From an archaeon (GTDB taxonomy: Archaea; Iainarchaeota; Iainarchaeia; Iainarchaeales; CSSED10-239), in contig DAOOON010000005.1 in the NCBI GenBank assembly GCA_035387745.1, positions 1-14,313 on the forward strand: a stretch of 14,313 nt of DNA. Reading direction: 5' to 3'. The notes under the pieces are model-generated. The model had not been told where the DNA came from, did not search any database, and worked only from the letters and a program-made list of their open reading frames with translations. Positions 1 to 14,313 of the stretch are shown in pieces. The stretch's first letter is position 1. Every line of letters begins with the position of its first letter. The translations under genes and the position numbers were made by a program.

Positions 1-108
1 TTTTCACTCCGTTTTGTTATGCTATATTATAGATTAAATAAAATATCCTTTTAAATATTTGTATTTATCATATTAATTGTAAATAAATTTATTTAAGCAG
101 GTGAAAAA

Positions 109-576
109 ATGGTATTATACAAATATTGTTCAAGATGTTATTCTTTAAATATTTCAAGAGACCCAAATTCTAATAATCAGAAATGTATGCAATGCGGTAA
201 TATTGGGATTATGCCTCAAGATAGTATTGATAAGATTAATGTTATGAAAAAATCAAAAGATGGGCAAAGATATGCAGCAGCATCTCAAAGTGCAAGACCT
301 TTAAGAACTGGTAGTCCAGGTAATGATTGTGAGGTTATTAGAAAGAAGGACGACCCTTATAATGACGATATTGACGAAATCGAAGTTCCAAAATCTAAAG
401 ATAATTTTGAAGACGATGAAGAACCAGAAGACAATTTAGAATCTAGGCAATCAAATATTATGAAAAGATCATCTCAGCAGCCAACGCCTGAGAGACACGG
501 GCTTTCTCCAAAAAGCAATCTTTCAGCAAAAGAAAGATTAAAGGAAAAGGGCGGGAAAGACTGGGATTTAGTTTAA
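109..576 (+). CDS. Hypothetical zinc-ribbon protein with an acidic low-complexity C-terminal part
   Basis: ATG at 109 with AGGTGA at 99-104; 155 aa. The N-terminus carries CxxC-x15-CxxC (CSRC...CMQC), a four-Cys zinc-ribbon signature. The remaining ~110 aa are D/E/K/S/P-rich and look disordered. No family recognised. Confidence 0.6.
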   Translation: MVLYKYCSRCYSLNISRDPNSNNQKCMQCGNIGIMPQDSIDKINVMKKSKDGQRYAAASQSARPLRTGSPGNDCEVIRKKDDPYNDDIDEIEVPKSKDNFEDDEEPEDNLESRQSNIMKRSSQQPTPERHGLSPKSNLSAKERLKEKGGKDWDLV

Positions 577-601
577 ATTTAATCAATTTGGAGGAAATAA
601 A

Positions 602-904
602 ATGAAAACCGAAAAAACAAAATGGTATTTTTTAATTGCAGTAGCTTTAATTGTTGGTGCAATTGTTGGTTATCTTGCAACAACTAAATTTTCAACAACA
701 GGAGATGCAAAAATAGGTATCTCTGATAGTTGTGTAAATGAAGTTGATCTTTTAAGAGATGATGCATCCGCGAGATGTTATTGTTCGGTGGGAACTTGTA
801 CCTGTGGAGGTGATTGTCCTTATGCGCCAAATGGCACAGAAAAGTGTAACTGGACAAAAAAACAATATTACAAATATGTAACAGATGAATTAAGTAAAAA
901 ATAA
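602..904 (+). CDS. Small membrane-anchored Cys-rich protein (hypothetical)
   Basis: ATG at 602 with GGAGG at 590-594; 100 aa. K-rich N-terminus, one hydrophobic helix (WYFLIAVALIVGAIVGYLA), then a ~70 aa tail with 7 Cys (ARCYCSVGTCTCGGDC...KC) and two N-x-T sequons (NGT, NWT). Its stop at 902-904 lies 2 nt from the stop of the convergent gene. Confidence 0.55.
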   Translation: MKTEKTKWYFLIAVALIVGAIVGYLATTKFSTTGDAKIGISDSCVNEVDLLRDDASARCYCSVGTCTCGGDCPYAPNGTEKCNWTKKQYYKYVTDELSKK

Positions 905-906
905 AA

Positions 907-1779
907 TTATTTTATTTTTTCATATTCTTTTTTTAGAAGTAGGGCATCCTGGTGTGGTATTGGACTTTCTGAGATTACAACACCGCTTGCTTTTATTTCT
1001 ACTAATTTTTCTAGTATCTTTTTGTAAGGGAAGTCGTTTGCTTTGTCTGTTAACATAACATGGTTTCTCTCGCCTTTTGGAGAGTATTCAATTCCTGACA
1101 TGTGACAATGCATTTGCTTAACATAATCAGGATAGCTATTGAGCTTTTCAAAGAAGGCATTAATGTTTTTCTGATCTTTAAAATAACCATCAAAACGAGC
1201 GTGCTGGTGTGAGAAGTCAATTACTGGTAAAACGTTTTCTGCTTTATATTTTTCAAAAAAATAAAAGATATCTTCAAGAGAACCAACTTGTGTTTCTTTT
1301 CCTGTCAATTCTAAACCAATATTTATCTTCTCTTTGTTTCCGCGCTTATCAAGTTCAGAAATAATCTTCTCAAGACCAAAAGAAACTTTTTCAAGAACAA
1401 CAGCCCTCTCTTGTTTTTGAAAAAAACCGGGGTGGAACAATGCAATTTTTGAGCCAATCTCTTGTCCAACTAATAGTGAGTTTGTAATATAGCCTGTGCT
1501 GTTTCTAATAATCTCTGGATCAAGAGAACTAAGATTAATATAGTATGGGCAATGAATACTAAGAAGAGTGTTTTTTTCTTCTGCTGTCTTTCTTATCTCT
1601 TGTAATTGTTCTTTATTATTAAGCTTAAGATAAACCCCTCTAACAAACTCAATCTCTAAAGCATCAAGAGAAAAAGAAGAGACTTGCATAATTCCAGTAG
1701 TTGTCTGATCTTTTATTTTTGGAATGGGGGCATTTGACACACCAGGAATTCCGGCAGTTCCAAAATATAACTTATTCAT
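907..1779 (-). CDS. nfo: Endonuclease IV family AP endonuclease (xylose-isomerase-like TIM barrel)
   Basis: 290 aa, ATG at 1779-1777 on the minus strand. Hand comparison with the E. coli Nfo metal-ligand blocks gives: HCPYYINL (Nfo HDSYLINL), FHPG (FHPGS), LELTG (IENTAG), IDFSHQH (IDTCHAF), CHMSG...GERNH (MHLND...DRHH), VISES (LILET). The start overlaps the stop of the upstream ferredoxin gene by 4 nt (ATGA, 1776-1779). Confidence 0.8.
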   Translation of the reverse strand: MNKLYFGTAGIPGVSNAPIPKIKDQTTTGIMQVSSFSLDALEIEFVRGVYLKLNNKEQLQEIRKTAEEKNTLLSIHCPYYINLSSLDPEIIRNSTGYITNSLLVGQEIGSKIALFHPGFFQKQERAVVLEKVSFGLEKIISELDKRGNKEKINIGLELTGKETQVGSLEDIFYFFEKYKAENVLPVIDFSHQHARFDGYFKDQKNINAFFEKLNSYPDYVKQMHCHMSGIEYSPKGERNHVMLTDKANDFPYKKILEKLVEIKASGVVISESPIPHQDALLLKKEYEKIK

Positions 1780-1967
1780 TCTTCTTCAATCTTTATACAA
1801 GAAACCGGGCAACTGTCTGCTGCAACTTGATTACAACCAATCTCTGCAACTTTTGTTTTCTTTGGTACTGGTTTTTCTCCTTGGTATGCCCAGTTATCTG
1901 GACAAACAGCAACACAGGCTCCACAACCAACGCATTTGTTTTTATCATGTATTATTTTAAATCCCAT
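1776..1967 (-). CDS. Small [4Fe-4S] ferredoxin, Pyrococcus/Thermotoga mono-cluster type
   Basis: 63 aa. AAGGAG (reverse complement of 1975-1980) lies 7 nt upstream of the ATG at 1967. CVGCGACVAVCPD is a CxxCxxCxxxCP motif, followed by distal C...CPVSCIKIEEE. The spacing and the acidic ...CPVS.I.IEE C-terminus match the short single-cluster ferredoxins. Confidence 0.85.
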   Translation of the reverse strand: MGFKIIHDKNKCVGCGACVAVCPDNWAYQGEKPVPKKTKVAEIGCNQVAADSCPVSCIKIEEE

Positions 1968-2074
1968 TTAATCGCTCCTTAAGTTTTATTATATTAATAA
2001 GATATAAAATAAACATGTATTTAAATGTTTCTTTCCTTTATAAATATATTTTAATATTAAAAAACAGATGTATA

Positions 2075-4297
2075 ATGCCTGATAAGTATAAAAAATTCAA
2101 GGTCTCAACAGAGAATCCTGGCGAAATTTATAGTTCTATATCAGTGGATTCTAGAGATTTTTCTAAACCTTCAGACAAGCTTACAAAAAGAACATCTGAT
2201 AAATATGTTACTTTATGTAAAAAAATATACCAAAAATTTCCAAGCCTTGGGGTAAATGGGAAATATAACGAAGAATACCAAAAAGCAATTGATTTTCTTG
2301 ACTGGGACTTAACTGCAGAAGAATATACTGCAACCACTAAACTTGTTTTGTTTGGAGGGCTATTTATTACATTGTTTATTTCAGGATTATCTTATGCTTT
2401 TCTATATACTATCCTGTCAGAAGCCTTTGGTAATTCTATGATGGCTTTATTTTTGATATTTGGACTACCAGCAGTTATTTTTATTTTTGTTTTTCTTTCA
2501 TTTCAGAAATATCCATTAAAGAAAGTTGCTGATGAGAAGATAAAAGCACTAACTTTTGTTCCTGAAATTTTAGGTTATATGATAATGTCTATGAAGTTAG
2601 TGCCTAATCTAGAAAAAGCAATAGAATTTGCTTCAGAACATGGACATGGAAAGATTGCTGAGGATCTTAAAAAATTACTTTGGGAAGTAAAGGTCGGAAT
2701 AAAAAACAGTGTTGCCGAAGGATTAGATGATTTAGCTTATCGCTGGGGAGATATTTCTATAGAATTAAAGAAAGGATTAATGAAGATTAGAGCATCAGTT
2801 ATTGAATCTTCAGAAAGCAAGAGATATCAACTTCTTGATCAGACAATGTCTGAAACTCTAGAGTCTGTAAAAGGCAAATTAGAAGATTATGCAAGAACTT
2901 TAAATCAGCCAGCAACAATTATGTTTTATCTTGGAATATTATTGCCTTTATTATTGATTATTGTTTTACCTGTTGGCTCTGCATTTTCTGGTTCTGCTCT
3001 TGCTCAACCAATTTATTTAATTTTAATTTATAATGTAATTATACCATTAGCTTGTTTTTTCTATGCTCAAGGGGTTATTAAAAAAAGGCCACCAACCTAC
3101 AATCCACCAAACATACCTTATGATTTTCCAGGGCTGCCAAAAAAGAATCATTTAAGAGTTAAGAATGCTCAAATTAATGTTTTTATAATAATTGCAATAC
3201 TTCTTGTAAGTTGTGCAGTTATTGGTTTTACGCTACAAAACGCCTATGGTGTGACAAGAGAAAAGATTTTAGAAAGAGAACAGGGCACGACTACACCAAA
3301 TTGGGATTGTACAAGAGAAGAAAGACAACAACAGCTTCTAGATCCTGCCTTTATATGTGCTGATGAAAGAAATTTTTGGCAAGATCCTAAAAATTCTATA
3401 ACTCCTTATTATCTAATATTTTTTATATTGTTTGCAGTTGCTGCTTCCATTTCTTTGTGGGCATATGCCACAAGTGTCTATAAAAGAAAAATACAACTAG
3501 CAACTGAAAATCAAGAAAAAGAATTTAAAGATGCTCTTTATATTATTGCAAGTAGACTTGGAGAAAACAAGCCAATAGAAGATGCTTTTGAGCATACCAG
3601 AAGATTTTTACCTAAGTCTACAGTTGCAAAGGATATTTTTGGTAAAACTGTAGATAATATTAGAGTCTTAGGTCTAACTCTTCAGTCAGCAGTTTTTGAT
3701 AGAAATTATGGTGCTTTAAAGAACAATCCATCAAGAATAATAACAAGTGCCATGCAATTGGTTGTTGATTCTGTGCAGATGGGAGTTAATGTTGCTGCAA
3801 AAACTTTAATTTCATATTCTATGCAGCTAAGAAATACAGACGAGATCAATCGTTTGCTTTCTATTCTGATTGCCGAAATTACAGGAACACTAAATAGTAT
3901 GGCTAAGTTTATTGGCCCAATTATCCTTGGTGTAACAACAACTCTTCATAAGGTGGTTATTTCTACTCTAGCATCAGTTGCAAGTTCTGGGGCAATACAG
4001 GACATGACTCAATCTCTAGAAGGAATAAATACTGCAGAACTTGGAATGGATTTAACGTCTGTATCTTCTTTTGGTACAGCAATCAATGTTGAGGTTATTG
4101 GTAAACTTGCAAGTGCAACTTCTTTTACAATTATTGTTGCGATTTATTTGATTGAGATTGTTCTAATAATGACTTATTTTACAACAATGATTGAGCAAGA
4201 AAATATGACATTAGTAAAATATAGGATTTCACAAACTCTTCCTGTTGCTGTAATTTTGTTTATAATTACAGTGATATTAGCAAACATGGTATTATGA
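2075..4297 (+). CDS. FlaJ/TadC/PilC-like polytopic platform protein of a type IV pilus-like system (two T2SSF-like domains)
   Basis: 740 aa counted from ATG 2075 (MPDKYKK...). The track ORF starts at 2015, but its first 20 codons read through AT-rich promoter-like sequence (ctttataaatatatttt). About 9 predicted TM helices. Two helical cytoplasmic segments each follow a basic stretch and precede TM helices: roughly 2537-2974 (KALTFVPEILGYMIMSMKLVPNLEKAIEFASEHGHGKIAEDL...GLDDLAYRW) and roughly 3512-3964 (KEFKDALYIIASRLGENKPIEDAFEHTRRFLP...). This repeats the GspF/T2SSF domain pattern. The stop overlaps the next gene start (ATGA, 4294-4297). Confidence 0.7.
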   Translation: MPDKYKKFKVSTENPGEIYSSISVDSRDFSKPSDKLTKRTSDKYVTLCKKIYQKFPSLGVNGKYNEEYQKAIDFLDWDLTAEEYTATTKLVLFGGLFITLFISGLSYAFLYTILSEAFGNSMMALFLIFGLPAVIFIFVFLSFQKYPLKKVADEKIKALTFVPEILGYMIMSMKLVPNLEKAIEFASEHGHGKIAEDLKKLLWEVKVGIKNSVAEGLDDLAYRWGDISIELKKGLMKIRASVIESSESKRYQLLDQTMSETLESVKGKLEDYARTLNQPATIMFYLGILLPLLLIIVLPVGSAFSGSALAQPIYLILIYNVIIPLACFFYAQGVIKKRPPTYNPPNIPYDFPGLPKKNHLRVKNAQINVFIIIAILLVSCAVIGFTLQNAYGVTREKILEREQGTTTPNWDCTREERQQQLLDPAFICADERNFWQDPKNSITPYYLIFFILFAVAASISLWAYATSVYKRKIQLATENQEKEFKDALYIIASRLGENKPIEDAFEHTRRFLPKSTVAKDIFGKTVDNIRVLGLTLQSAVFDRNYGALKNNPSRIITSAMQLVVDSVQMGVNVAAKTLISYSMQLRNTDEINRLLSILIAEITGTLNSMAKFIGPIILGVTTTLHKVVISTLASVASSGAIQDMTQSLEGINTAELGMDLTSVSSFGTAINVEVIGKLASATSFTIIVAIYLIEIVLIMTYFTTMIEQENMTLVKYRISQTLPVAVILFIITVILANMVL

Positions 4298-4836
4298 ATT
4301 TTAAATTAAGTAAAAAAGGAGATGATTCAGCTTCTGAAGCCTATAGGCTACTTATTGGATTTATTCTTGGTGCAGCTATTCTTGTTATTATTATGAATAT
4401 GATTAACAGTACACAAAACCAATCAATATTAATAAGTAATCAGAAACTAAAAGAAGGGCTAGTCTCTGCAGTAAAGAGTACAGGAACAAGTGCAAAAACT
4501 CCTTTTGTTATTGAGGATTTAATGCTTAAAGGAAGTATCTCTAAAACTACAATTACAAATTATACAGGTCTTCCAGAAGAATGTATGGCTTTTGTTGCTG
4601 GTCCAAGGCTTTTTTCCGAAAATGACTTTAATATTATAAGAATAAAACCGAGATATTTGAAAATGGATGTTTGGGCATATTGTGATTTTATGCCCCCAGG
4701 AACGACACAGCTACCAGATGGATTAGATACAAACACGCAGGGGCAGCTTACACCAGATCCTGACGATTGTCCGACATACTGTGTATTTTTCTTTAATGTT
4801 AAACCAGATAATGGGCTTTATACTACAACCTCTTAA
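4294..4836 (+). CDS. Pilin-like protein with an atypical class III signal peptide
   Basis: 180 aa, translationally coupled to the platform gene. The N-terminus MNFKLSKKG|DDSASEAYRLLIGFILGAAILVIIMNMI has basic residues, then G, then an S-x-E-xxx-L-like motif, then a ~20 aa hydrophobic helix. The mature part has 4 Cys and an NYT sequon. The globular domain was not recognised. Confidence 0.6.
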   Translation: MNFKLSKKGDDSASEAYRLLIGFILGAAILVIIMNMINSTQNQSILISNQKLKEGLVSAVKSTGTSAKTPFVIEDLMLKGSISKTTITNYTGLPEECMAFVAGPRLFSENDFNIIRIKPRYLKMDVWAYCDFMPPGTTQLPDGLDTNTQGQLTPDPDDCPTYCVFFFNVKPDNGLYTTTS

Positions 4837-4903
4837 AATTAATATTTATAAACAATACCACACTATAATATTTTAATTAAATACAGAAAATGTGAAAAAC
4901 CAT

Positions 4904-5398
4904 ATGAACATCTTTACTAAAATTTTATTTATTCTTTTAGCAATTGTAATACTTATACTTGGCTTTATTGTTGGAACCTTTATCTTAACTTTTATATTTG
5001 TATTATTAATCTTAATGACTTTATTGTTTGTGATTATTTGGTTATTTAATAATCTCGTAAGCCTATTTAAAAGTAGCATAGCTAAACTTATCTTTAAGTC
5101 TGTATTCTCTATGGTCGCTACTTATGGTTTAATTACAATATTGTGGTTATTTACTGGTAAGTTCTTTTTACAGATGGATAAAACAATAGCACTTAGTGTT
5201 ATTTGGGTTATTACGGTTTTAATCTTTGGGGTATTGTGGTATTTATTACACATAAGAAAGCATTCAAAGAAGCACCAATATCTTTGGGATGACTATAAGA
5301 GCACTCCAGATAAACTAGATAGTTGGGATGTTCTTTTAATGCTTGTATTGCCATCAATATTAGTTTATATATTTAATTTTGCTCATGCGATAATTTGA
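4904..5398 (+). CDS. Small polytopic membrane protein (about 5 TM), unknown function
   Basis: The track ORF begins at GTG 4892. ATG 4904 (MNIFTKILF...) lies 8 nt after GTGA and is the more likely start. The protein is almost entirely hydrophobic helices with one basic loop (HIRKHSKKHQ). No GxGD or other catalytic motif was seen. Confidence 0.55.
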   Translation: MNIFTKILFILLAIVILILGFIVGTFILTFIFVLLILMTLLFVIIWLFNNLVSLFKSSIAKLIFKSVFSMVATYGLITILWLFTGKFFLQMDKTIALSVIWVITVLIFGVLWYLLHIRKHSKKHQYLWDDYKSTPDKLDSWDVLLMLVLPSILVYIFNFAHAII

Positions 5399-5399
5399 G

Positions 5400-5422
5400 T
5401 TTAGGTTAAAAAACAACCTAAA
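5400..5422 (+). terminator. Hairpin immediately after the 5398 stop (candidate terminator or RNA-stability element)
   Basis: tttaggtt (5400-5407) pairs perfectly with aacctaaa (5415-5422) around a 7-nt loop. A T5 run follows at about 5446-5450. The stem is AT-rich and weak. Confidence 0.3.
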
Positions 5423-5516
5423 ATAAAGATTTACAATCAAGCTAGTTTTTGGTTTATTATTAACTTTAATTTTATTATTAATATAATTATAATTCAATAA
5501 ACCTTGCAATATCAAT

Positions 5517-5531
5517 AGCTTTTTAAAAGCT
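5517..5531. promoter_or_regulatory. Palindrome AGCTTTT-T-AAAAGCT in the long intergenic region upstream of 5600 (candidate operator)
   Basis: 7-bp arms around one central base, centred ~76 nt upstream of ATG 5600. A related string (aagctttaaaaag, 6395-6407) sits ~83 nt upstream of the paralog start at 6484. This could be chance in AT-rich DNA. Confidence 0.25.
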
Positions 5532-5599
5532 TATATCTTCTATTTCTTTTATTTAATCTTAGTACTAAATACTATTTTAAATAAAATTAGTGAAAATAT

Positions 5600-6385
5600 A
5601 TGAAAAACACAAAAAAAGAAGATCAAGAATACCTTGATTCAATGTTAGAAAAGCACAACATATCTACAAAATACGATAATGAATATTATAGAAAGTTAGA
5701 TAATACAATTTTACAATGGTGTCCATTTGTATTAATATTATTTATTATTCTTTCTATTTTATGGTCTTCTATAGTCGGCAGTAATAAACAAATAATTAGT
5801 TTTTTTATATTTACTGTAATATTTATTTTTGCAGTACTTTATATAATTTTTTCTTTTTTATTTTGGATTGTGGAGTTGTTATCTAAAAAAACTAAAAATT
5901 ATAAGTTTAATTTAATAGTAAAATTATCAATTTCAATTATTTTAGCAATATTAATTACATATACTGTATCTACCCCAATTTGTGCTGGTTGTGGAGGGAG
6001 TACTCCAACAATAGCAACGACACAATTATTAAAATCTTTAATTGATAATCCAGGAGCAGAAAGTTGTACATATCCTGTTACATTTACTATATCAAAATCC
6101 ACACTTTCAGCAGAAAGCATAACAAGAGATACGGGGTTAGAGCCTGAGCAAGTTTATTTTGCCAATCCTGAAGACATAGTAAATTTTGATGCAATTGATT
6201 CTCAATTACTAAAATATACTGCCACATCAAGCAAAAAAGTAGCAATTTGTGCTATTTGTTCGCAAGATGGCAAAACCGGATTAGAGCAAGCACTTCAAGA
6301 AAACGGCATAAGCAACACAACAATAAATTCAATAATAGAAGGAGAAACCATTTGTGCAGTTTATCCAAGAAAATCAGCAAATTAA
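5600..6385 (+). CDS. Membrane-tethered paralog of the 6484-7008 pilin (three N-terminal TM helices plus a shared Cys-containing globular domain)
   Basis: 261 aa; ATG at 5600 with GTGA at 5590-5593. Residues ~137-261 align with residues ~45-174 of the next ORF (LIDNPGAESCTYPVTFTISKSTLSAESIT vs QINNPGAESCTDPVTFTRSKSTLSAEGIT; ...GETICAVYPRK vs ...GETVCVIYPRK). All four Cys are conserved. The N-terminal 95 aa (a cytoplasmic segment plus 2 TM helices) have no counterpart in the paralog. Confidence 0.65.
   Translation: MKNTKKEDQEYLDSMLEKHNISTKYDNEYYRKLDNTILQWCPFVLILFIILSILWSSIVGSNKQIISFFIFTVIFIFAVLYIIFSFLFWIVELLSKKTKNYKFNLIVKLSISIILAILITYTVSTPICAGCGGSTPTIATTQLLKSLIDNPGAESCTYPVTFTISKSTLSAESITRDTGLEPEQVYFANPEDIVNFDAIDSQLLKYTATSSKKVAICAICSQDGKTGLEQALQENGISNTTINSIIEGETICAVYPRKSAN
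6045..6120 (+). repeat. Dispersed near-identical 76-nt block, copy 1 (inside the 5600-6385 CDS)
   Basis: Hand alignment with 6653-6728 gives 69 of 76 identical positions, including most synonymous sites. Flanking homologous coding sequence is far more diverged. Confidence 0.85.
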
Positions 6386-6483
6386 ATATATAAGAAGCTT
6401 TAAAAAGATTTTGTTAATATTATTTCATTAATATATTTATATTAAATAGAGTAAATAAAAAATAAAAAAGGTGAAAACAAATT

Positions 6484-7008
6484 ATGTTAAAATTAACAAA
6501 GAAAGGACAAGCCTCATCAACATTTCAATTGTTGATTGCCGCAGTTGTTGCTCTTGCAATTTTAGGTGTTTTATTAAATATACTAGGGGTTCTTCCAGGA
6601 CTAAATAAAGACCCTACAAAGACTACAAAAACACTTTTAACTGATCAAATAAATAATCCAGGAGCAGAAAGCTGTACAGACCCAGTTACATTTACTAGAT
6701 CAAAATCAACACTTTCAGCAGAAGGCATTACCGTTAATACCGGGATAGAAATGACACAAGTATATTTTGATAATCCAGAGACAATATCCAATTTTGATCC
6801 AAAGGACAGTATATTAAGATATGGAGCGAGCGGCTCAAAAAAAGTAATGATGTGTATTGTTTGTTCTTCAGATAAAAGCACATTAGATCAGGCAATTGAG
6901 GCAAATCAAAAGACAGACCCAGCAGATAATTTTAAAACTCAACCCACAGAATTATCTTCTGGGGAAACAGTATGTGTAATATATCCAAGAAAGACATCTG
7001 CTTCATAA
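6484..7008 (+). CDS. Type IV pilin-like protein with a class III signal peptide
   Basis: 174 aa; AGGTGA at 6469-6474, 9 nt upstream of the ATG. The N-terminus MLKLTKKG|QASSTFQLLIAAVVALAILGVLLNILGV fits basic-G|Q plus a hydrophobic helix (the Q-x-S motif of PF04021-type signals). The mature domain has 4 Cys. Confidence 0.75.
   Translation: MLKLTKKGQASSTFQLLIAAVVALAILGVLLNILGVLPGLNKDPTKTTKTLLTDQINNPGAESCTDPVTFTRSKSTLSAEGITVNTGIEMTQVYFDNPETISNFDPKDSILRYGASGSKKVMMCIVCSSDKSTLDQAIEANQKTDPADNFKTQPTELSSGETVCVIYPRKTSAS
6653..6728 (+). repeat. Dispersed near-identical 76-nt block, copy 2 (inside the 6484-7008 CDS)
   Basis: See copy 1. The shared string starts ataatccaggagcagaaag and ends cactttcagcagaa[a/g]gcat. 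Confidence 0.85.
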
Positions 7009-7033
7009 GATAAAATATAAGAAAAGGTAAGAT

Positions 7034-7273
7034 ATGAACTTAAAACAAGAGCTTAAGAGATTATGGCTTGATAAAAGAGCGCAAGGGGATGGCGCTTCCA
7101 CCCTCTATATGCTTATTATCATAGCTATAGTTGCTCTTGTTCTAATTGCAGTCATTAAACCTATGTTTAATAGCAGTATGAAAACTTCAATGAATGTCGC
7201 AGACTTGCCTAACCAAGGTACAACTGCGACCCCAACAGTCAATTCTACAGCACCAACTACTGGCTCAAGCTGA
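7034..7273 (+). CDS. Short pilin-like protein (Flp/EpdE-like size) with a T/P/S-rich tail
   Basis: 79 aa; AGGT at 7025-7028. MNLKQELKRLWLDKRA|QGDGASTLYMLIIIAIVALVLIAVIKP, followed by only ~35 aa ending NQGTTATPTVNSTAPTTGSS. Two N-glycosylation sequons (NSS, NST). No Cys. Confidence 0.65.
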   Translation: MNLKQELKRLWLDKRAQGDGASTLYMLIIIAIVALVLIAVIKPMFNSSMKTSMNVADLPNQGTTATPTVNSTAPTTGSS

Positions 7274-7292
7274 TTTCTTTAAAACAACAAGC

Positions 7293-7303
7293 TTTTTAAA
7301 TTC
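7293..7303 (+). promoter_or_regulatory. TATA-box-like element (ctttttaaatt) about 27 nt upstream of ATG 7326, possible internal promoter giving a leaderless mRNA
   Basis: The 52-nt gap 7274-7325 has no Shine-Dalgarno-like motif, unlike neighbouring genes. The TTTTTAAA element is preceded by an A-rich BRE-like stretch (aaaacaacaa) at the archaeal -26/-27 spacing. TATA-like strings are common in this AT-rich DNA. Confidence 0.3.
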
Positions 7304-7325
7304 TTTTTCTATATTTATTTCTAAG

Positions 7326-7928
7326 ATGAACAAAAACAAAAATATATTTTTGATAAAAAGTAGTAAGGCTCAAGCAAGCGCGCCTTTTGAAGTTCTTGTA
7401 GCTGTTATTCTTATGGGCTTTGTTATTATGGCAGGTACCTGGGCTTTAATCAACCTAAACCAAAGCGTTTGTGTAGGTAATAAACGACAAAGCATGAGCG
7501 AAATGAAAGGTATAATCGAAGATATAATAATGGGTTCTGATTTAGCAGTTAAAAATGTGAAATTTGATATACAGCCTTGTTTTAATGAAAAATTTGAAGC
7601 AATAACCTTAAAGACCTATACTAACGAAACACTCTGTACTTCTTATTGTAATGCAGGAGAAACCTGTACCTTAATGGAATATGTTTATGATGATGATAAA
7701 ACTACGAAACGACCTATTGCTCCTATGTGTTTAAATCTACCAACTGCAATTAATTATGCAAGTTCTGCTGAAGGTTGTGAAGAAAATTCTGAGGAATGGC
7801 TAGCTTTGAATTTTGGTGGCAGTAATCCAAATTCTATATTAACAAGCGGCAGCTATAAGATTTTCATGAGAAGTCAGACAGGAACAGATTCTATAAGAGA
7901 ATTGTGTTTTTTAAAAAAAATTGATTAA
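7326..7928 (+). CDS. Pilin-like protein with a class III signal peptide (Cys-rich globular domain)
   Basis: 200 aa from ATG 7326. The track ORF starts at 7194 but overlaps the previous gene out of frame. The N-terminus MNKNKNIFLIKSSKA|QASAPFEVLVAVILMGFVIMAGTWALI fits Q-x-S-x-x-x-E-x-L. 8 Cys and NQS/NET sequons in the mature part. Confidence 0.7.
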   Translation: MNKNKNIFLIKSSKAQASAPFEVLVAVILMGFVIMAGTWALINLNQSVCVGNKRQSMSEMKGIIEDIIMGSDLAVKNVKFDIQPCFNEKFEAITLKTYTNETLCTSYCNAGETCTLMEYVYDDDKTTKRPIAPMCLNLPTAINYASSAEGCEENSEEWLALNFGGSNPNSILTSGSYKIFMRSQTGTDSIRELCFLKKID

Positions 7929-7930
7929 AA

Positions 7931-8587
7931 ATGATTGAGTTTTCTTTATCAAAATTAAATTTATTAATTTTTGTAACAGCAATTGCTGCAATAGTAATAT
8001 TCTTTATAGCAACATTTAATTCTAGTATGAAAACAAGACAAAGCTATGAATTGGTTTACAAAGTGGGAAAAGAAATAAAGACCGGGATAGAAAACGAAAG
8101 CTATTGTACTGTAAAATTTATAACAATACCAAAAACCATACAAACAAATTCTGGAAATTCTGATACCTTTAATATGAGATATAAATTAAATGTTTCTGCA
8201 TATTCTGTAGGCGATGATTCAAAAAGGTTAGTTCTTACTGTAATGGATAGAAAAGAAAAACCAAAAATCTATGCTGCTTACGATATTGACTATAATGGTT
8301 CAGTTGCGTTATATGCATCAGAAAGCTGTACAAGTTTTCCAAACTGTACAATTACCAAGTCAGAAAATTTTTCTGTAGATTTTGATCCATCTAAAAGAGA
8401 TTCGATAGACACACAAATACTTTTTGCAAAGATTATTTCAAATGGAAACCCCATAATTTTCTTAATTCCGTGTCTTGAAAAAAAAGGAATATATACTTGC
8501 AGAGAATTTATAAATACGAAAGATTTAAAGACGTTGATTCCTTGTTTAAATATAGTTAGTGATTTAGTAAATTATACTGATAATTAG
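7931..8587 (+). CDS. N-terminally anchored secreted protein, possible minor pilin or assembly factor
   Basis: 218 aa; starts 2 nt after the previous stop. The N-terminus MIEFSLSKLNLLIFVTAIAAIVIFFIATFNSSMKT is a hydrophobic helix without a clear [KR]G|Q site. 6 Cys and 7 N-x-S/T sequons (NSS, NES, NVS, NGS, NCT, NFS, NYT) suggest an extracellular glycoprotein. Confidence 0.55.
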   Translation: MIEFSLSKLNLLIFVTAIAAIVIFFIATFNSSMKTRQSYELVYKVGKEIKTGIENESYCTVKFITIPKTIQTNSGNSDTFNMRYKLNVSAYSVGDDSKRLVLTVMDRKEKPKIYAAYDIDYNGSVALYASESCTSFPNCTITKSENFSVDFDPSKRDSIDTQILFAKIISNGNPIIFLIPCLEKKGIYTCREFINTKDLKTLIPCLNIVSDLVNYTDN

Positions 8588-8595
8588 GATTAAAC

Positions 8596-9108
8596 ATGAA
8601 TAACAAAAAAGGATATATTGGCGCAATTGGAGACGATCTCCCAAGCTTAATACCAATATTTGTAGGTTTAACTATCTTTTTTGCAGTTTTTTTAAATACC
8701 TATAATGTTTATAGAAATAACACAGATCTTTATTCCTTAAGAAATGATGCAATTAATATTTCAGGAATAATAAAAGAAAATCCAATTATTTCAGACCAAA
8801 ATCAATTTATAAAATCTTGTAACAGAGTTAAAACAAAATACAATTGGAATGCGTTTATTATACCGTTAGATCTTAATAGTGAAAATTATAACGGCTTAAC
8901 TATTGATGACTTAGAAGTAGAAAACATTATGAAACATTGGGCAGAAACCGAATCTCAACCTAGAAAATTAATATGTGATTCTGAGGGATTAGGGGCTTTA
9001 AGAACTGCATTACAAACAAAAGATGTAACTGTCTATAAATATCCAATAACTGTTCAACAACAATTTTATGTAGAACCTGCATGGATTTACATTGTTGTGT
9101 GGAAATGA
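8596..9108 (+). CDS. Pilin-like protein with an atypical N-terminus
   Basis: 170 aa; AGGA at 8586-8589. MNNKKG|YIGAIGDDLPSLIPIFVGLTIFFAVFL has basic-G followed by a hydrophobic helix. 2 Cys, NNT and NIS sequons. The domain was not recognised. Confidence 0.55.
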   Translation: MNNKKGYIGAIGDDLPSLIPIFVGLTIFFAVFLNTYNVYRNNTDLYSLRNDAINISGIIKENPIISDQNQFIKSCNRVKTKYNWNAFIIPLDLNSENYNGLTIDDLEVENIMKHWAETESQPRKLICDSEGLGALRTALQTKDVTVYKYPITVQQQFYVEPAWIYIVVWK

Positions 9109-9114
9109 TATAAA

Positions 9115-9918
9115 ATGCAATTAATAAAAATAAAAACGAGAAAAGGTCAAGCAGCAATAACAGATGCTTTATTTTTCTTAATTATAATTGTCGCCCTGTC
9201 TGTATTAATGTTTAGATATTCTTCTACTTATGGCAACAGAATAGAACAAGCAAGTTCTGATTTATATTATAAAGAATATACAAATTCGGTTCTAAAAACC
9301 ATATTTTATGTATCTGCACCTTTAGATTTTGATTTAAATCTTGAAAAAACCAAACAAAACGATTATTTAATGGCTCTTGTAAAACAAGATTATTATGCAC
9401 AGGGAAAACTTGGTTTTTCTGATATGAATGATCTAAAAACAGATAATTATTTAGACATTGCAAAATACAATTTATTTCATACAATTAAAGCCACTATGCG
9501 TCCATTAGAATCACAAGATTATTTGTTCTATATTTTTAATAATGAAGATTCTAATTTTTTATATTTTACAATTAAGAACACACACTTTGAAATATCAGAA
9601 GCTAATCCAAATAGTGGAGTAGATGCGGTTAGAGGAGTTACAAGATACATACTAACAGAAAATCCATATCATTATTATCTTTGTGATCCTGAAAGTTATG
9701 AAGATGTAAGAGCTGTTGTTTCTAGGTCTCCAAAGATTTTTTCCTCTTCTATACCTTTGTCGTTTACATATAATTATAGTACTTATGCACAACTTGGGAT
9801 AAAAGAAGATATTGTTACTTCCACTTTTGCAATGTGGCCAGCAACAGTCGATATAAATAGCGATTTGCTTATTCCATTAAATTGTAAAGAAGTTGATCCC
9901 CTATCTAGCAATCCATAA
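9115..9918 (+). CDS. Pilin-like protein with a class III signal peptide (largest of the set)
   Basis: 267 aa. MQLIKIKTRKG|QAAITDALFFLIIIVALSVLMF is a clean basic-G|Q plus hydrophobic helix. 2 Cys in the mature part. Last gene of the same-strand run. Confidence 0.7.
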   Translation: MQLIKIKTRKGQAAITDALFFLIIIVALSVLMFRYSSTYGNRIEQASSDLYYKEYTNSVLKTIFYVSAPLDFDLNLEKTKQNDYLMALVKQDYYAQGKLGFSDMNDLKTDNYLDIAKYNLFHTIKATMRPLESQDYLFYIFNNEDSNFLYFTIKNTHFEISEANPNSGVDAVRGVTRYILTENPYHYYLCDPESYEDVRAVVSRSPKIFSSSIPLSFTYNYSTYAQLGIKEDIVTSTFAMWPATVDINSDLLIPLNCKEVDPLSSNP

Positions 9919-9939
9919 GCCATACTACCAGTTAATTAA

Positions 9940-10674
9940 TTAAAACTTCAAACCTAATTCGTCATCAGAATCTGCGTCTTCTGCATCATCATCTCCAAAA
10001 TCTAATTTTAATTCTTCTTTTTTAGGTTTTGATGATTCTTTATTCTTTACTATTTTATCTTTAATATTATCTTCTGATTTTTTTGTTGTTTCTTTACTTT
10101 TCTTTTCTTTTGCGTTTTGAATTGCTTTTTCAACTATTTTTTCTTTTTTTGCCTTTTCTCTTATATCTTCTTTTTTATTTTCTTCTACAACATCATCTAT
10201 TACTTTCTCTAGCTCTTCTCTGTCATTTAAGAAATCATAATTTTCTTTGGTTTTAACAGTATTTGTTGAAGTACTGCCAGTTATATTTCTAGAACCCCTA
10301 TAATGTGCGTTGCTTTGAACAACTTGCTTAACACTTTCTTGAGTAACATTAACATCTCTTACTGATAATTGAGAATATATCATTTCTGCGATTTCATCAA
10401 TATCTGGATCAATTCTGTTTTTTAGGTCTATGAGTATTTTATCTATAATTTTTTGCTTTTCTTCAGAATTTAATTTTTTATTTTCTTTTATAGATTTTAA
10501 TGTTTTTTCTGGTATTTCTCTTGTTGATTTTAATTCTGTTTCTTTTTTTTCAGGAACCATTTTTTTTGTATCTTTTTTAGGTTTAGTTATTGGTGTGTCA
10601 CCATAAACCATTTCTCCATTTTCTTCTTTTCTATAAAATCTGCGCTCTCTTCTCTTAATTTTGTTAATATCCAT
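9940..10674 (-). CDS. K/E-rich low-complexity protein with an acidic C-terminal tail (hypothetical)
   Basis: 244 aa from ATG 10674 (MDINKIKRRERRF...). GAGGA (reverse complement of 10681-10685) lies 6 nt upstream. The track start at 10701 has no such motif. Two long K/E-rich stretches flank a short ordinary-composition core (IDEIAEMIYSQLSVRDVNVTQESVKQVV). The protein ends ...FGDDDAEDADSDDELGLKF. Confidence 0.6.
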   Translation of the reverse strand: MDINKIKRRERRFYRKEENGEMVYGDTPITKPKKDTKKMVPEKKETELKSTREIPEKTLKSIKENKKLNSEEKQKIIDKILIDLKNRIDPDIDEIAEMIYSQLSVRDVNVTQESVKQVVQSNAHYRGSRNITGSTSTNTVKTKENYDFLNDREELEKVIDDVVEENKKEDIREKAKKEKIVEKAIQNAKEKKSKETTKKSEDNIKDKIVKNKESSKPKKEELKLDFGDDDAEDADSDDELGLKF

Positions 10675-10773
10675 AATTATTCCTCTTTTTTCTATAAACA
10701 TATAAGTATATAATATTTAAAAACTATTATGCTAATATATATTTAACTAAAATATTATAAAAAGGCATAAATA

Positions 10774-11310
10774 ATGAATGAATTATTATTAAGCACACTA
10801 AATTACATATGGGTTTTTATTAAATTATTACTATTTAGTGCTTTGTTGGCTCTGCCATTTATTGGTTTAACCTATCTTTTCCAGAAAAAATTTAATTGGT
10901 TAAGACTTGATAAAAAGCTAAGCTTTGCAAAGTCTTTGTTTATTATTATTTTTGTTATTTCATATATTGCTTTAATAATAGTTTATTTTGTGCCGGTATT
11001 AGATAAGTTCTCAACATTTACTTTCTTTGAAGGCGTCTTATTTGTATTGATACAAATTGTAAGGTTATTTTTAGTAAATTTATTATTTACTGGAATGTTT
11101 TTTATTATTGCAATGTTTATATCAATGTTATATGATTCCTTTATGGAAAAAAAAGAAAAAAAGAAGAAAACAAAAAAGCAAAAATCAGAAAAATTAGTTT
11201 TTATAGACCTTTGGAAAAGTTTTGCTATGGTTTTGTTTGTTGTTATGTTATTCTTAATAATAATATTCCCATCATTAATTGCAATGATTTTATATTTGAT
11301 ATTTATGTAA
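10774..11310 (+). CDS. Small polytopic membrane protein (4-5 TM) with a poly-Lys cytoplasmic loop
   Basis: 178 aa, ATG at 10774. Hydrophobic helices are interrupted by MEKKEKKKKTKKQKSEK. The stop is 12 nt before the start of the giant ORF, suggesting co-transcription. Confidence 0.6.
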   Translation: MNELLLSTLNYIWVFIKLLLFSALLALPFIGLTYLFQKKFNWLRLDKKLSFAKSLFIIIFVISYIALIIVYFVPVLDKFSTFTFFEGVLFVLIQIVRLFLVNLLFTGMFFIIAMFISMLYDSFMEKKEKKKKTKKQKSEKLVFIDLWKSFAMVLFVVMLFLIIIFPSLIAMILYLIFM

Positions 11311-11322
11311 GGTGTTTTTTAA

Positions 11323-14313
11323 ATGAACGAATCAATTAAAAGAGTTTGGATTTTTTTCTTTTTAATACTTTTCTGCAATAGTGTATTTGCTTATGGATAT
11401 AATCCGGATAACAGCTATTATTTTGCAGAAAAAGAAATAAGTTCTGATGGCGTTGTCTTTGATAGAGGCAATGGCTGTATGACTAAAGAGTTATCAGAAA
11501 AAGAAGTTAATGCTCTTTGGGGAGAAATATTAACAAAGGGATTCTCTGCAGATCTTTTAGATTCAGATCAAGAAGCAAACACTAACAGAGAAAATCTAGA
11601 TAAAAATAATTTGATTGTTGCAGATGCTGATGCTAAATCAGGAGATGTTGGTGCAAAGATGCAAGTTCCCTCTCAACAAATCAACCCTCTTGAAGTTCCA
11701 ATGTTAATAGGTAAAACCTGTTATGGGTCTTATGATTTTGGACTTAATTTAAATGAAACATTAAGAGTTGGCAGATGTGATCTTGATAGTAATACAAGCG
11801 ATTGTTATCTTAGTATGCCTGGGCAATACAGACAAAACAATTTAAGTGCTTCAAATGTTGGAGGATTCTTTAAAGAAGTAAAAGTTGTAGGAAAAGATTT
11901 AATTTCTGGAATTAAAGAAACAGTAATAAAAAATGAAGAAGATGAAATTCCTGGTAAAGAAAATATGGGGCCATTTTCTGATTTATCTTCACGGGAGTTA
12001 AGTAAAATAGAACAGACCATGCTAGCAAACGATGCAAATACAATAAATACAGAAACCTGGGATGCTGTAAGTGATGAAGTTCTAGTAAATAGTTCTTTAA
12101 CTCAAAATTTTGCAGCAACAATGCAAACTACCTGTAGTGGAGAAAATTGTTATATTAACACTTATTCTTTATTTGACAAAATGTTTAATCAATATTTTTC
12201 TGCAGATATGGTTTACAGTTCTGTATCTCCATTTTTATTTAATGGTGCCGCAAGGATATTTAATGTTCCAGGAGTTAAAAATGCAGTCTTAAAACCAATA
12301 AATACTTTAAAAGATAAAGGGCTAATAAAAGACGGCGGTTTTTTAGATACTCTAACTAAAGATCCAGCATTATTTGTTAAAGACCCTTTTGGAAGAATTA
12401 GTCAATCAATAAAAGCAAGCAAATATGCAAACGCTGACGTAGATAGATTCGTAGAATTTAATCTGGCGCACAATGAAATAATGGGAAGAGACATAGCTCA
12501 CTACAATATGAAAGGATTTACAGATAATATGTTTGATTCGGTACAAGATGGTATTGGAGCAACAAGTAAATTTAATAAAGAAATGATTTTAGATGGTACT
12601 AAAAACTTAAGTGCAGCACAAAGACGCGTAGCAACAGATGTAGCTCAGGAATATGCAGATAAACTATATTCTTCTAGCGCATTATTAAAATCAAAACTTG
12701 CAAATCCCATAACTAGTGATGCAATAAACATCTATAAAAAAGGTATTGCAAATGGAGCAAATATAAATGAAATATTAAGCAATTTAACTGAAGAACAATA
12801 TAAAGCATTAGATGATTATGTATATACGGCTACAAAGCTTTCTAAAAGTTTAGAAATTGCAATGGATGGAAAATTTAAATGGAAAGATTCTCTATTTGAC
12901 ACTGCAACAATAAATAATAAAGTTGCAAAAGTATATGATAATGGTGTAGAAAGGGAAATCAAAATTGAAAATTATAAATCATTAGATGGCGGATCAAATG
13001 CTTTGTATAAAAAAGAAATTTTACAAGATGGTTCAGTAAAGATAGATACTAAGGTTTATGGTGATGAATTCAAATTATTTGAATATGATAGAGTAAATCA
13101 AGTCTCTCAAATAAAGGGTGCTGGTAAATCTGTTGTAACAGAAAATATGAAAGTTCCACTTGCTGGTGGGGAAGTTAATAGACAACGACTAAAGGCGGTG
13201 TATAAAGATTTAGACAAGTCTGGAGCAATAAAAATAAATGATGCGGCCGGATTAACACCATTTCAAAAAAACACTACTGCTTTTGTTTCTTTTACAGATT
13301 CGGTTTCTGGACCTCAAACTATATCCATTCATGATTATTTTACTAATTCATACACCCCTTTGCCTGGAACTATAGAACTATATCCAAAAGGCTATAATAC
13401 AATATTAATAGATGATGTAGAAATTTTTGATACAGTGCTGGGAAAAAAAGTAAAAATAAAAGATGCAATTAATCCAAACACCGGAAAACCATATGGCCCA
13501 GGGTATTTTGATTTAGATCCTTTAGAAGTAGCGGCTCCAGTTCTTATTCCTCCGTCTTCCGGAAGTACGGTTGTAAAAAAAATAGACGATACCGCAAATC
13601 GTTTTAGTGACGTCTTAAAAACAATGAGTCATAAAGAATGGGTTTCTGGTAAAGGAAGAGACGCAATTAATCAGTTAATGAGAAATTATAATGGTGGATC
13701 CTATCAAAGGTTTTTAACACAAAATCTATTAGTTTTTGGACTTAATTTTGCATACTGGGAAGTTAAATCTGGTGGTGCAACAATATTTGGAGATACAATT
13801 GGAATGACTAGATGGTCAATGTATCAATTACCTGAAACTTATACTGCTTTAAAAATTAAGCACAAAGAAAACGGAGAGATTTATAAAGACGCATATTTAG
13901 ATTTCTTTGCTAATACTGGTTCAGATCAAGGAGATCTTTTCATGAAATATTTAAATTCTATGTTATTTTGGTCTGTTAATGTAACCTCAAAAGTAGTTGA
14001 AGGTGTAGGTGCCGATTGGTCTACTTCTGTTGTTGATTTCCTAAATGCACGATTACAAGGCCAAATTAGAAGATCAGAAACAGACGATATAGTATTAATT
14101 ACAAATAATATTTCTTCAGGTTGTAACAATCAATTTTGTAATTTTACAATCGGCGCAAACTATATTGATCAAAACACAATGAACGCATCTTTATCTGCTA
14201 TAGAGCTAGAAGAATTAGAAAAAGAAAATAAAGATGCCAAAGAAAATACAGAAGATGCAGATGCCAAAGAAAATACAGAAGATGCAGATGCCAAAGAAAA
14301 TACAGAAGATGCA
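11323..14313 (+). CDS. Giant secreted protein of unknown function, 3' end truncated by the window (at least 997 codons)
   Basis: Not in the supplied ORF track because it has no stop in the window. My codon-by-codon translation from ATG 11323 (AAGGTG at 11309-11314, 8 nt upstream) found no stop through base 14313. The N-terminus MNESIKRVWIFFFLILFCNSVFA|YGYNP is a typical Sec signal peptide. No later TM segment was seen. 8 Cys lie in close pairs around a ~660 aa Cys-free core. The visible end is a DAKENTEDA tandem repeat. Confidence 0.85.
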   Translation, partial: MNESIKRVWIFFFLILFCNSVFAYGYNPDNSYYFAEKEISSDGVVFDRGNGCMTKELSEKEVNALWGEILTKGFSADLLDSDQEANTNRENLDKNNLIVADADAKSGDVGAKMQVPSQQINPLEVPMLIGKTCYGSYDFGLNLNETLRVGRCDLDSNTSDCYLSMPGQYRQNNLSASNVGGFFKEVKVVGKDLISGIKETVIKNEEDEIPGKENMGPFSDLSSRELSKIEQTMLANDANTINTETWDAVSDEVLVNSSLTQNFAATMQTTCSGENCYINTYSLFDKMFNQYFSADMVYSSVSPFLFNGAARIFNVPGVKNAVLKPINTLKDKGLIKDGGFLDTLTKDPALFVKDPFGRISQSIKASKYANADVDRFVEFNLAHNEIMGRDIAHYNMKGFTDNMFDSVQDGIGATSKFNKEMILDGTKNLSAAQRRVATDVAQEYADKLYSSSALLKSKLANPITSDAINIYKKGIANGANINEILSNLTEEQYKALDDYVYTATKLSKSLEIAMDGKFKWKDSLFDTATINNKVAKVYDNGVEREIKIENYKSLDGGSNALYKKEILQDGSVKIDTKVYGDEFKLFEYDRVNQVSQIKGAGKSVVTENMKVPLAGGEVNRQRLKAVYKDLDKSGAIKINDAAGLTPFQKNTTAFVSFTDSVSGPQTISIHDYFTNSYTPLPGTIELYPKGYNTILIDDVEIFDTVLGKKVKIKDAINPNTGKPYGPGYFDLDPLEVAAPVLIPPSSGSTVVKKIDDTANRFSDVLKTMSHKEWVSGKGRDAINQLMRNYNGGSYQRFLTQNLLVFGLNFAYWEVKSGGATIFGDTIGMTRWSMYQLPETYTALKIKHKENGEIYKDAYLDFFANTGSDQGDLFMKYLNSMLFWSVNVTSKVVEGVGADWSTSVVDFLNARLQGQIRRSETDDIVLITNNISSGCNNQFCNFTIGANYIDQNTMNASLSAIELEELEKENKDAKENTEDADAKENTEDADAKENTEDA
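14233..14313 (+). repeat. Perfect 27-bp tandem repeat, at least 3 copies (gatgccaaagaaaatacagaagatgca), in frame and encoding DAKENTEDA
   Basis: Units at 14233-14259, 14260-14286 and 14287-14313 are identical base for base. The array runs off the window edge, so the copy number is unknown. Confidence 0.95.

Follow-up and report, generated by a model that had tools for sequence, protein, structure and literature searches.

What does the very long open frame at the end of an Iainarchaeota contig encode, and what does its place behind a set of pilus-like genes suggest about its role? DPANN archaea, an abundant and mostly uncultured group, are believed to make their living through cell contact, and their contact molecules are largely unknown. 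The stretch analyzed here, hereafter the window, comprises 14,313 nucleotides (nt) of contig DAOOON010000005.1 (assembly GCA_035387745.1, positions 1 to 14,313, forward strand). An initial reading made from the letters alone (the sequence-only reading) had proposed that its largest gene, beginning at 11323, encodes a secreted protein with no recognizable domain, and had named an adhesin, a surface-layer (S-layer) component or a host-interaction protein as possible roles. We describe this gene, called the giant below, as the representative of an orphan family of predicted membrane-anchored surface proteins. With about even confidence, we read the product as an adhesin-like or anchoring accessory at the cell surface that belongs to a type IV pilus (T4P)-like apparatus of DPANN archaea and probably serves attachment.

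The giant gene and its full-length product

Re-translation of 11323–14313 (+ strand, frame 1, from ATG 11323) gave 997 codons with zero stops up to the last base of the window, confirming the frame; no in-frame stop had been overlooked. Base frequencies in the window (A 0.356, T 0.343, G 0.160, C 0.140) predict a stop about every 12 codons and put the chance of 997 open codons at 4e-38, while the longest open run in 200 shuffles of the 11323–14313 span was 131 codons. The frame was missing from the list of open reading frames (ORFs) because that list excludes ORFs running off the window end. The four short ORFs listed in this span (12110–12292 on the + strand; 11805–12020, 11912–12121 and 13926–14129 on the − strand) all lie inside the long frame and are its shadows, as had been supposed. 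With orthologues at 25–100% identity among more than 200 cluster representatives, the giant is a genuine gene. It follows a gene for a small polytopic membrane protein of 178 residues at the reported distance of 12 nt. Within this gap, GGTG (11311–11314, +), a putative Shine–Dalgarno-like motif, lies 8 nt 5′ of ATG 11323, and the two genes are probably co-transcribed.

The window end cuts the gene, leaving its 5′ 57% (997 of 1,737 codons; 11323–14313, +). The true 3′ end, C-terminal anchor included, was found on a Joint Genome Institute (JGI) metagenome contig, L001, which shares 99.4% nucleotide identity with window positions 8326–14313 and extends beyond the window end; in the shared part of the giant gene, the two copies differ in 5 codons. 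The full-length product on L001 (P0001) has 1,737 residues. Beyond the acidic repeat at which the window stops, it continues for another 740 residues, the best-conserved part of the family, and ends in a G/S-rich linker, the sequence '...FNIPLTPES', a transmembrane (TM) helix of about 22 residues and 'DRKKRK'. In the visible part, the sole TM-like segment is residues 4–26, in line with the sequence-only reading, and hydropathy of the full-length protein reveals the N-terminal h-region, one C-terminal TM segment and nothing else. The mature protein is acidic (isoelectric point ~4.9), and its ectodomain of about 1,680 residues contains 14 cysteines, all of them conserved. Of the claim that the protein is secreted, the signal peptide stands; free secretion does not, since a C-terminal TM helix and a lysine/arginine-rich (K/R) tail, KKRK, would hold the protein in the membrane. 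We infer a type I membrane-anchored surface protein.

The predicted Sec-type signal peptide (11323–11391, +; MNESIKRVWIFFFLILFCNSVFA followed by Y) has the n-h-c layout described earlier. Its small-x-small end (VFA or AFA) is kept phylum-wide, and the h-region together with the xFA or AFA end was found in about 45 orthologues; cleavage probably follows VFA. The giant was rejected as a type IV pilin or archaellin, as its peptide is of the Sec n-h-c type ending in VFA, with no class III signal.

The mature protein opens with a conserved Cys-rich region (residues 24–300; 11392–12222, +) that was delimited by invariant columns and the conservation profile and includes the block YSLFDKMFNQYFS. Cysteines occupy positions 18 (within the signal peptide), 52, 133, 152, 161, 271 and 276, and then 934 and 939, matching the reported three pairs, Cys-free core of about 660 residues (657 by our count) and C-x4-C pair. 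The most variable part, with low conservation and many insertions and deletions, covers residues ~305–780 (12235–13662, +). It is followed by a conserved block, residues ~800–945 (13720–14157, +), which carries YQLPETYT, an acidic loop and the C-x4-C pair (Cys934/939), and whose invariant columns are D860, N864, G866, S867, D868, G870, D871, F873, C934 and C939. The acidic loop, DFFAN-x-GSDQGDLF at 13900–13941, is invariant, and from its D/G pattern alone a Ca-binding role may be suggested. The acidic tandem repeat noticed before proved to be a perfect 27-nt repeat (14232–14313, +; Tandem Repeats Finder) encoding a (DAKENTEDA)n linker. At least 3.0 copies are present in the window, whose end cuts the array, and 3.9 in L001 (5904–6008). 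The repeat is missing from a 77% identical relative (P0002) and from most of the family, with 83% gaps at residues 951–1000; it is lineage-specific and marks a hypervariable linker joining two conserved halves of the giant.

Distribution and fold of the family

An indexed protein search recovered 32 full-length relatives of 1,629–1,772 residues, all hypothetical and all from metagenome-assembled genomes labelled 'archaeon', 'Candidatus ainarchaeum' or 'Diapherotrites'. Two further indexed searches with profiles added no new members and missed a divergent clade later found in genomes. Among GTDB species representatives, a scan detected the gene in 51 genomes and found one locus in each; Ca. Iainarchaeum andersonii is among them, as are Ca. 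Forterrea multitransposorum and AR10, whose genomes are complete. Iainarchaeota orthologues in genomes measure 1,477–1,763 residues. In an exhaustive HMMER search, a profile of the C-terminal 974 residues matched 207 cluster representatives, about 100 of them full-length relatives. In a distant tier (E 1e-28 to 1e-14), the match is confined to the last 200–400 residues. The named members of this tier are Candidatus Micrarchaeota and the rest Diapherotrites, all annotated as 'hypothetical protein', and among the named matches of the search there were no relatives beyond Iainarchaeota and Micrarchaeota. By these searches, the family is previously unannotated and appears confined to Iainarchaeota (Diapherotrites), apart from distant relatives among the Micrarchaeota. 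No description of the gene or its family was found in the literature on Iainarchaeota, Forterrea and AR10. The gene takes up about 0.4–0.6% of a genome of roughly 0.8–1.2 Mb.

The earlier statement that the product has no recognizable domain withstood all searches. Pfam, NCBIfam and PHROGs returned nothing above noise for the window fragment, the full-length giant, 27 relatives, the AR10 orthologue and the Micrarchaeota relatives. Against all PDB sequences, phmmer and two family profiles gave nothing credible, the best match (E 0.72) being a low-complexity helical one, and phmmer comparison of the giant with the other large anchored proteins adjoining Micrarchaeota giants gave no paralogy match. 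Using 32-sequence alignments, AlphaFold2 modelled the giant as two segments that are partly confident, with a mean predicted local distance difference test (pLDDT) of 56 and 64. The models are good at residues ~310–780, in the window half, and ~1340–1660, and poor at the N-terminal Cys-rich region (pLDDT below 50), 780–1000 and 1000–1340. The variable part (pLDDT 60–90), the sole confident part of the window half, was modelled as a helical bundle (~300–515), a beta domain (~530–730) and further helices, and residues ~1340–1660 as a confident all-beta region. Foldseek found no match for the first, window-half model in PDB or BFVD (best E 0.86), and the viral library, BFVD, offered nothing better for the giant models. 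Kelch/propeller matches of the second model (E ~1e-4) were rejected as generic beta-meander likeness, with a TM-score of at most 0.16 and a root-mean-square deviation of ~20 Å. Profile self-comparison by hhalign detected no internal repeats (maximum probability 13.5%), so the giant, unlike many archaeal surface proteins, is not built from serial Ig/PKD/propeller modules. The giant stands as an orphan family, though about half of the protein is poorly modelled.

Could the conserved motifs nevertheless betray an enzyme? FSHHTDYDG, C-x-D-D-E-E-G-x-Y-x-H and DFFANxGSDQGDLF are invariant, rich in His/Asp/Glu and kept across the whole phylum, and they might form metal or catalytic sites of a surface-anchored enzyme, for example a polymer or host-envelope hydrolase, which would suit archaea that depend on scavenging. 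However, no enzyme family matched by sequence, profile or fold, the motifs sit in poorly modelled AlphaFold regions, and FSHHTDYDG is not retained in the Micrarchaeota tier, where the match is limited to the last 200–400 residues. We consider such an enzyme quite improbable.

A fusogen-like protein, bridging or fusing cells to give cytoplasmic contact with a host, is more improbable still. Foldseek searches of PDB and BFVD, with models that are partly of low confidence, revealed no likeness to fusexins or to fusogens of class I, II or III, and neither a heptad-repeat architecture nor a hydrophobic fusion loop was recognized. Iainarchaeota are not known to be obligate episymbionts, which also counts against this explanation. 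In its favour are the type I anchored large ectodomain, the presumed conserved disulfides and the host-attached life of some members of the lineage (PMC5498576).

An S-layer identity was considered as well. None of the domains PF05123, TIGR01564/TIGR01567 or MSTP was detected in the giant by Pfam (window protein, 27 members and six Micrarchaeota relatives) or NCBIfam. The S-layer protein of the cultivated Micrarchaeon Ca. Micrarchaeum harzensis, SLP_Mh, is a 101-kDa protein of PF05123 type and the most abundant protein of the cell (10.1101/2021.04.28.441871), and a structure-based survey assigned Iainarchaeota an MSTP-like S-layer protein of 1,039 residues (10.1101/2024.05.28.596244). The giant resembles the DPANN S-layer proteins (SLP_Mh, with PF05123 and TIGR01564/7; MSTP-like A0A2G9N319) in being acidic, large, Sec-exported and encoded by the same organisms, but it belongs to a different family and possesses a TM anchor that SLP_Mh lacks. 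As a canonical S-layer lattice protein, the giant was rejected, because it has no PF05123 or MSTP domain and a different S-layer family is known or predicted in both phyla; in this sense, the S-layer option of the sequence-only reading is disfavoured.

Linkage to a type IV pilus-like cluster

The sequence-only reading placed a pilus-like locus 1.4 kb from the giant; indeed, the last pilin-like gene ends at 9918, 1.4 kb upstream, and co-occurrence of the two in related genomes proved strongly positive. The cluster has a fixed order: a TadC/PilC-like platform gene, six to nine prepilin-like genes, a reverse-strand gene for a charged protein and, nearly always last, the giant. The order ending in the giant recurs in L002, whose giant is 32% identical, in L003 and L004, and in all Iainarchaeota loci that extend far enough upstream. 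In the clade of the window, the flanking housekeeping genes for AP endonuclease and aspartyl-tRNA synthetase (AspRS) are conserved as well, so synteny by itself would be weak support in that clade. Both flanks are gone from 27 divergent loci, including those of AR10 and I. andersonii, and the giant still follows TadC-like and pilin-like genes. The linkage also extends to Micrarchaeota: among seven metagenome loci with full flanks, four (L060, L066, L067, L072) contain the whole cluster in matching order with the giant last, and a fifth (L064) places the giant next to a T4P-like cluster of another kind, which encodes a vWA-domain protein. Because the linkage outlasts both flank turnover and the phylum boundary, we argue for a functional connection.

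In Micrarchaeota and divergent Iainarchaeota (L023, L024, L034, L035, L038, L055, L060, L066, L067), the T2SSE ATPase gene (PF00437) directly precedes the TadC-like gene, an arrangement indicating that the cluster was ancestrally a complete T4P-like one. The window's clade has lost or moved this ATPase, which must be encoded elsewhere or shared with another system. There, the position of the ATPase gene is occupied by the divergently transcribed AP-endonuclease gene (907–1779, PF01261). The Micrarchaeota ATPase at L066:27–1442 carries an intein in its ATPase domain (Pfam Intein_splicing, E 2e-20).

Many divergent Iainarchaeota encode a second, paralogous T2SSE ATPase/T4P-like cluster about 4–6 kb 3′ of the giant, on the opposite strand and convergent to it (L023, L024, L030, L033, L036, L038, L041, L042, L045–L049, L054). 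In the Micrarchaeota locus L064, a cluster of this second type is divergent and upstream (214–9598), with class III signal-peptide genes and a gene for a 1,185-residue vWA-domain protein, a PilY1-like candidate. With a second cluster that is convergent or divergent to it, the giant lies between two pilus-like clusters in those genomes.

How might an accessory surface component of a pilus-like apparatus work? The giant would be exported by Sec and its signal peptide removed after VFA23, whereupon the ectodomain would fold outside the cell, with up to seven disulfides possibly formed by the conserved cysteines. The C-terminal TM helix and K/R tail would keep the protein in the cytoplasmic membrane, and an [IL]P-x-x-P-E motif at the outer membrane face could provide a docking or processing site. 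In this position, the giant could serve the apparatus encoded upstream, comprising the TadC-like platform, prepilin-like subunits and, in other clades, the T2SSE ATPase. From genomic linkage, we hypothesize that these small archaea use it to attach to surfaces or to partner cells; adhesin-like, host-interaction and S-layer-anchor roles are all candidates.

Several points weigh against an accessory role in the pilus-like apparatus. The functional link is one of gene neighbourhood alone, and in two Micrarchaeota loci (L057, L068) no recognizable T4P genes occur within 10 kb of the giant. In the window's clade, the T2SSE ATPase gene is not part of the cluster. The giant is not a pilus subunit itself, as it has a Sec signal and no class III signal, and its C-terminal membrane anchor argues against a PilY1-type location at the pilus tip. 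N-x-S/T sequons are not enriched in the giant (24 observed versus 19 expected). The structural null is also weaker than it sounds, given that the models are partly confident.

Alternatively, the giant could act on its own at the cell surface, for instance as a receptor, in nutrient binding or as part of a protective coat, and have merely inherited its place behind the pilus genes, without functional coupling. The shared flanks of the window's clade, the reverse-strand gene that parts the pilin genes from the giant, and the two Micrarchaeota loci without adjacent T4P genes all speak for this explanation. It fits less well with a linkage that survives complete flank turnover in Iainarchaeota and crosses the phylum boundary with its order kept, or with L064, where the giant again adjoins a T4P-like cluster, of a different type. 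We regard mere inherited order as unlikely.

A role as envelope scaffold is also unlikely in our view, although it has precedents. Here, the giant would be the membrane stalk or anchor of the S-layer, comparable in role to SlaB of Sulfolobales, tethering a PF05123 or MSTP lattice across a pseudoperiplasm of 20–25 nm, or else a second S-layer component. Its type I anchor, acidity and large ectodomain would suit a stalk, as would its wide occurrence, at one locus found per genome, in Iainarchaeota. The authors of the SLP_Mh study saw no clear anchor and speculated on a second, TM-domain protein as stalk (10.1101/2021.04.28.441871), and comparable T4P-locus proteins were labelled 'S-layer-like' by Makarova et al. 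2016 (PMC4858521). On the other hand, the giant has no S-layer domain and no internal repeats, of Ig/PKD type or otherwise, the models predict no long coiled-coil stalk, and sequons are not enriched. Moreover, it is tightly linked to pilus genes and not to an S-layer protein gene, and between the phyla only the last 200–400 residues are conserved.

The proposed assignment to the pilus-like apparatus places the giant beside known proteins. Archaeal T4P loci encode large signal-peptide proteins with a C-terminal TM segment and conserved cysteines that are provisionally regarded as S-layer-like or as adhesins, an example being arCOG05471 of Thermoproteales, predicted and not characterized (PMC4858521). 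DPANN T4P loci are full of unrecognizable 'dark matter' (PMC6393860), and two T4P systems, common to many Micrarchaeota, were noted for Mia14 (PMC5498576). The giant shares with the proteins of Makarova et al. a T4P-type locus (ATPase, TadC, pilins), the signal peptide, the single C-terminal TM segment, conserved cysteines, large size and hypothetical status. Of the genes by which such a locus is recognized, those for the TadC-like protein and class III proteins accompany the giant; the T2SSE ATPase gene does so in Micrarchaeota and divergent Iainarchaeota, though not in the clade of the window. In contrast to those proteins, the giant is from DPANN archaea, is much larger (1,430–1,770 residues), carries LPxxPE before the TM segment and keeps its terminal place in a cluster of about 12 genes across two phyla; the comparison is by description, not by sequence homology.

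PilY1/PilC1 and the DUF2341 adhesins of bacterial and methanococcal T4P are likewise large non-pilin proteins encoded with minor pilins and presumed to act in adhesion. The giant, by Pfam, has no vWA, DUF2341 or PilY1 beta-propeller domain, and it is membrane-anchored rather than located on the pilus tip. It was rejected as a PilY1-like tip adhesin on these grounds, namely the absence of vWA, DUF2341 and propeller domains and the anchor in the cell membrane; the PilY1-like candidate is instead the separate vWA protein in the second T4P cluster of L064.

In essentials, the sequence-only reading was borne out. New here are the orphan family and possibly a C-terminal signal; the type of locus was already recognized, and nothing about the giant is mechanistically surprising yet. 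As a putative accessory component of a pilus-like apparatus, the giant is a concrete candidate for the DPANN attachment or envelope machinery, and co-cultures of Micrarchaeota now exist. Should it be merely another anchored surface protein, the gain would be modest, amounting to a named family and a locus with better annotation.

C-terminal motif and neighbouring genes

Is the C-terminus a sorting signal or a plain anchor? Every full-length Iainarchaeota orthologue (~45) ends in [FL]N[IL]P[SL][LTM]PE, a TM helix and a K/R-rich tail, and the Micrarchaeota relatives end in LPSWPE/D, a TM helix and an Arg-rich tail. The tripartite arrangement of [IL]P-x-x-PE, TM helix and K/R tail is thereby common to all full-length members in both phyla. 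Among 2,234 stop-to-stop ORFs from 931 kb of sampled DNA, P-x-x-P-E followed by a terminal TM segment is confined to the giant family. Within about 20 kb read around each giant gene, the motif occurs on no other ORF, and no sortase was recognized in the annotated neighbourhoods.

Pfam gave no match to isolated C-terminal tails. In NCBIfam, isolated tails did not reach the curated cut-offs of sorting domains: Loki-CTERM scored 12–14 bits (cut-off 19.9), LPXTG_anchor 12.6 bits (cut-off 15.9) and GG_III-CTERM 15.1 bits (cut-off 22). These weak matches were solely to models of the sorting-signal type. With the named systems, PGF-CTERM/archaeosortase A, PEP-CTERM/exosortase, LPXTG/sortase and Loki-CTERM, the giant shares a short Pro-containing motif, a TM helix of about 20 residues and a basic tail at the C-terminus; its LP-x-x-PE motif differs from that of each class, and its scores fall below the cut-offs. 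Sortase systems usually have several substrates, whereas the signal stands on the giant family alone in the sampled DNA. The C-terminus looks like a sorting signal and, by sequence, belongs to no known class; it is flagged here as a possible new sorting motif, and it may equally well be a plain stop-transfer anchor whose juxtamembrane contact site is conserved.

A bolder proposal joins this motif with the cluster. The giant and its cluster might constitute a previously undescribed surface organelle of Iainarchaeota and Micrarchaeota, in which a T4P-like motor assembles or operates a structure around a giant of novel fold, with LPxxPE–TM–basic tail as a new class of sorting signal processed by a sortase-like enzyme, and with the whole acting as an interface for attachment to, or exchange with, partner cells. 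We consider this doubtful, and retain the accessory component of a pilus-like apparatus as the preferred reading.

An Rce1-like/CPBP intramembrane protease gene (PF02517) is located about 5 kb 3′ of the giant in one locus (L002:19906–20556, −), with no linkage established. In two loci the giant gene itself looks disrupted. At L012:10001–15025, its C-terminus is frameshifted and without the LPxxPE–TM tail; in L041, it is split into pieces of 448 residues (9950–11296) and ~1,115 residues (from about 11232). These disruptions could be assembly errors or pseudogenes, which bears on the dispensability of the gene.

In the window, the cluster begins, as in the rest of its clade, with a gene for a polytopic TadC/PilC/FlaJ-like platform protein of 760 residues (2015–4297, +). 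Pfam T2SSF was detected in three of four orthologues (best E 2.7e-5), the window copy falling below the cut-off (E 0.021), and TadC-like orthologues, 36–90% identical, head the cluster elsewhere. A run of small genes for putative major and minor pilins follows (4294–9918, +), with orthologues in matching order in Iainarchaeota and Micrarchaeota. Most of them encode archaeal class III (prepilin-type) signal peptides, such as KKGQ/ASS (gene at 6484) and RKGQ/AA (gene at 9115), with the slash at the processing site; the same motifs are present in the AR10 orthologues.

Two of these pilin-like genes (5600–6385 and 6484–7008) are tandem paralogues with related C-terminal domains ('...INNPGAESCT.PVTFT.SKSTLSAE.IT...'), both matching the same single L002 gene. 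In place of a simple class III signal, the first copy shows an atypical extension at the N-terminus that contains several hydrophobic segments. The ORFs at 7034–7273 and 7194–7928 overlap by 80 nt. Orthologues align with the second from residue ~58 only, and a class III-like signal (SSKAQ/ASAPFEVLV) follows an internal Met, which together place the true start probably at the ATG at about 7326.

Between the pilins and the giant, the reverse strand carries the gene for a K/E-rich protein (9940–10701, −), predicted to be cytoplasmic, whose orthologues hold a conserved cluster position in both phyla. This protein ends in a double zinc ribbon in AR10 (L036:6825–7733) and Micrarchaeota (L066:8448–9797); the window copy has no Cys and no zinc ribbon, and an acidic C-terminus instead. 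The gene for the 178-residue polytopic membrane protein directly 5′ of the giant (10774–11310, +) has orthologues that adjoin the giant, likewise behind the pilin-like genes, in the window's clade and in AR10 (L036, 9022–9564). BLAST found no match to it in most of the divergent Iainarchaeota loci or in Micrarchaeota. Finally, G+C drops to ~0.24 at 5000–6500 and 10000–11500, compared with ~0.30–0.35 elsewhere; genes for small, very hydrophobic membrane proteins fall in these stretches, as does the divergent intergenic region 10702–10773.

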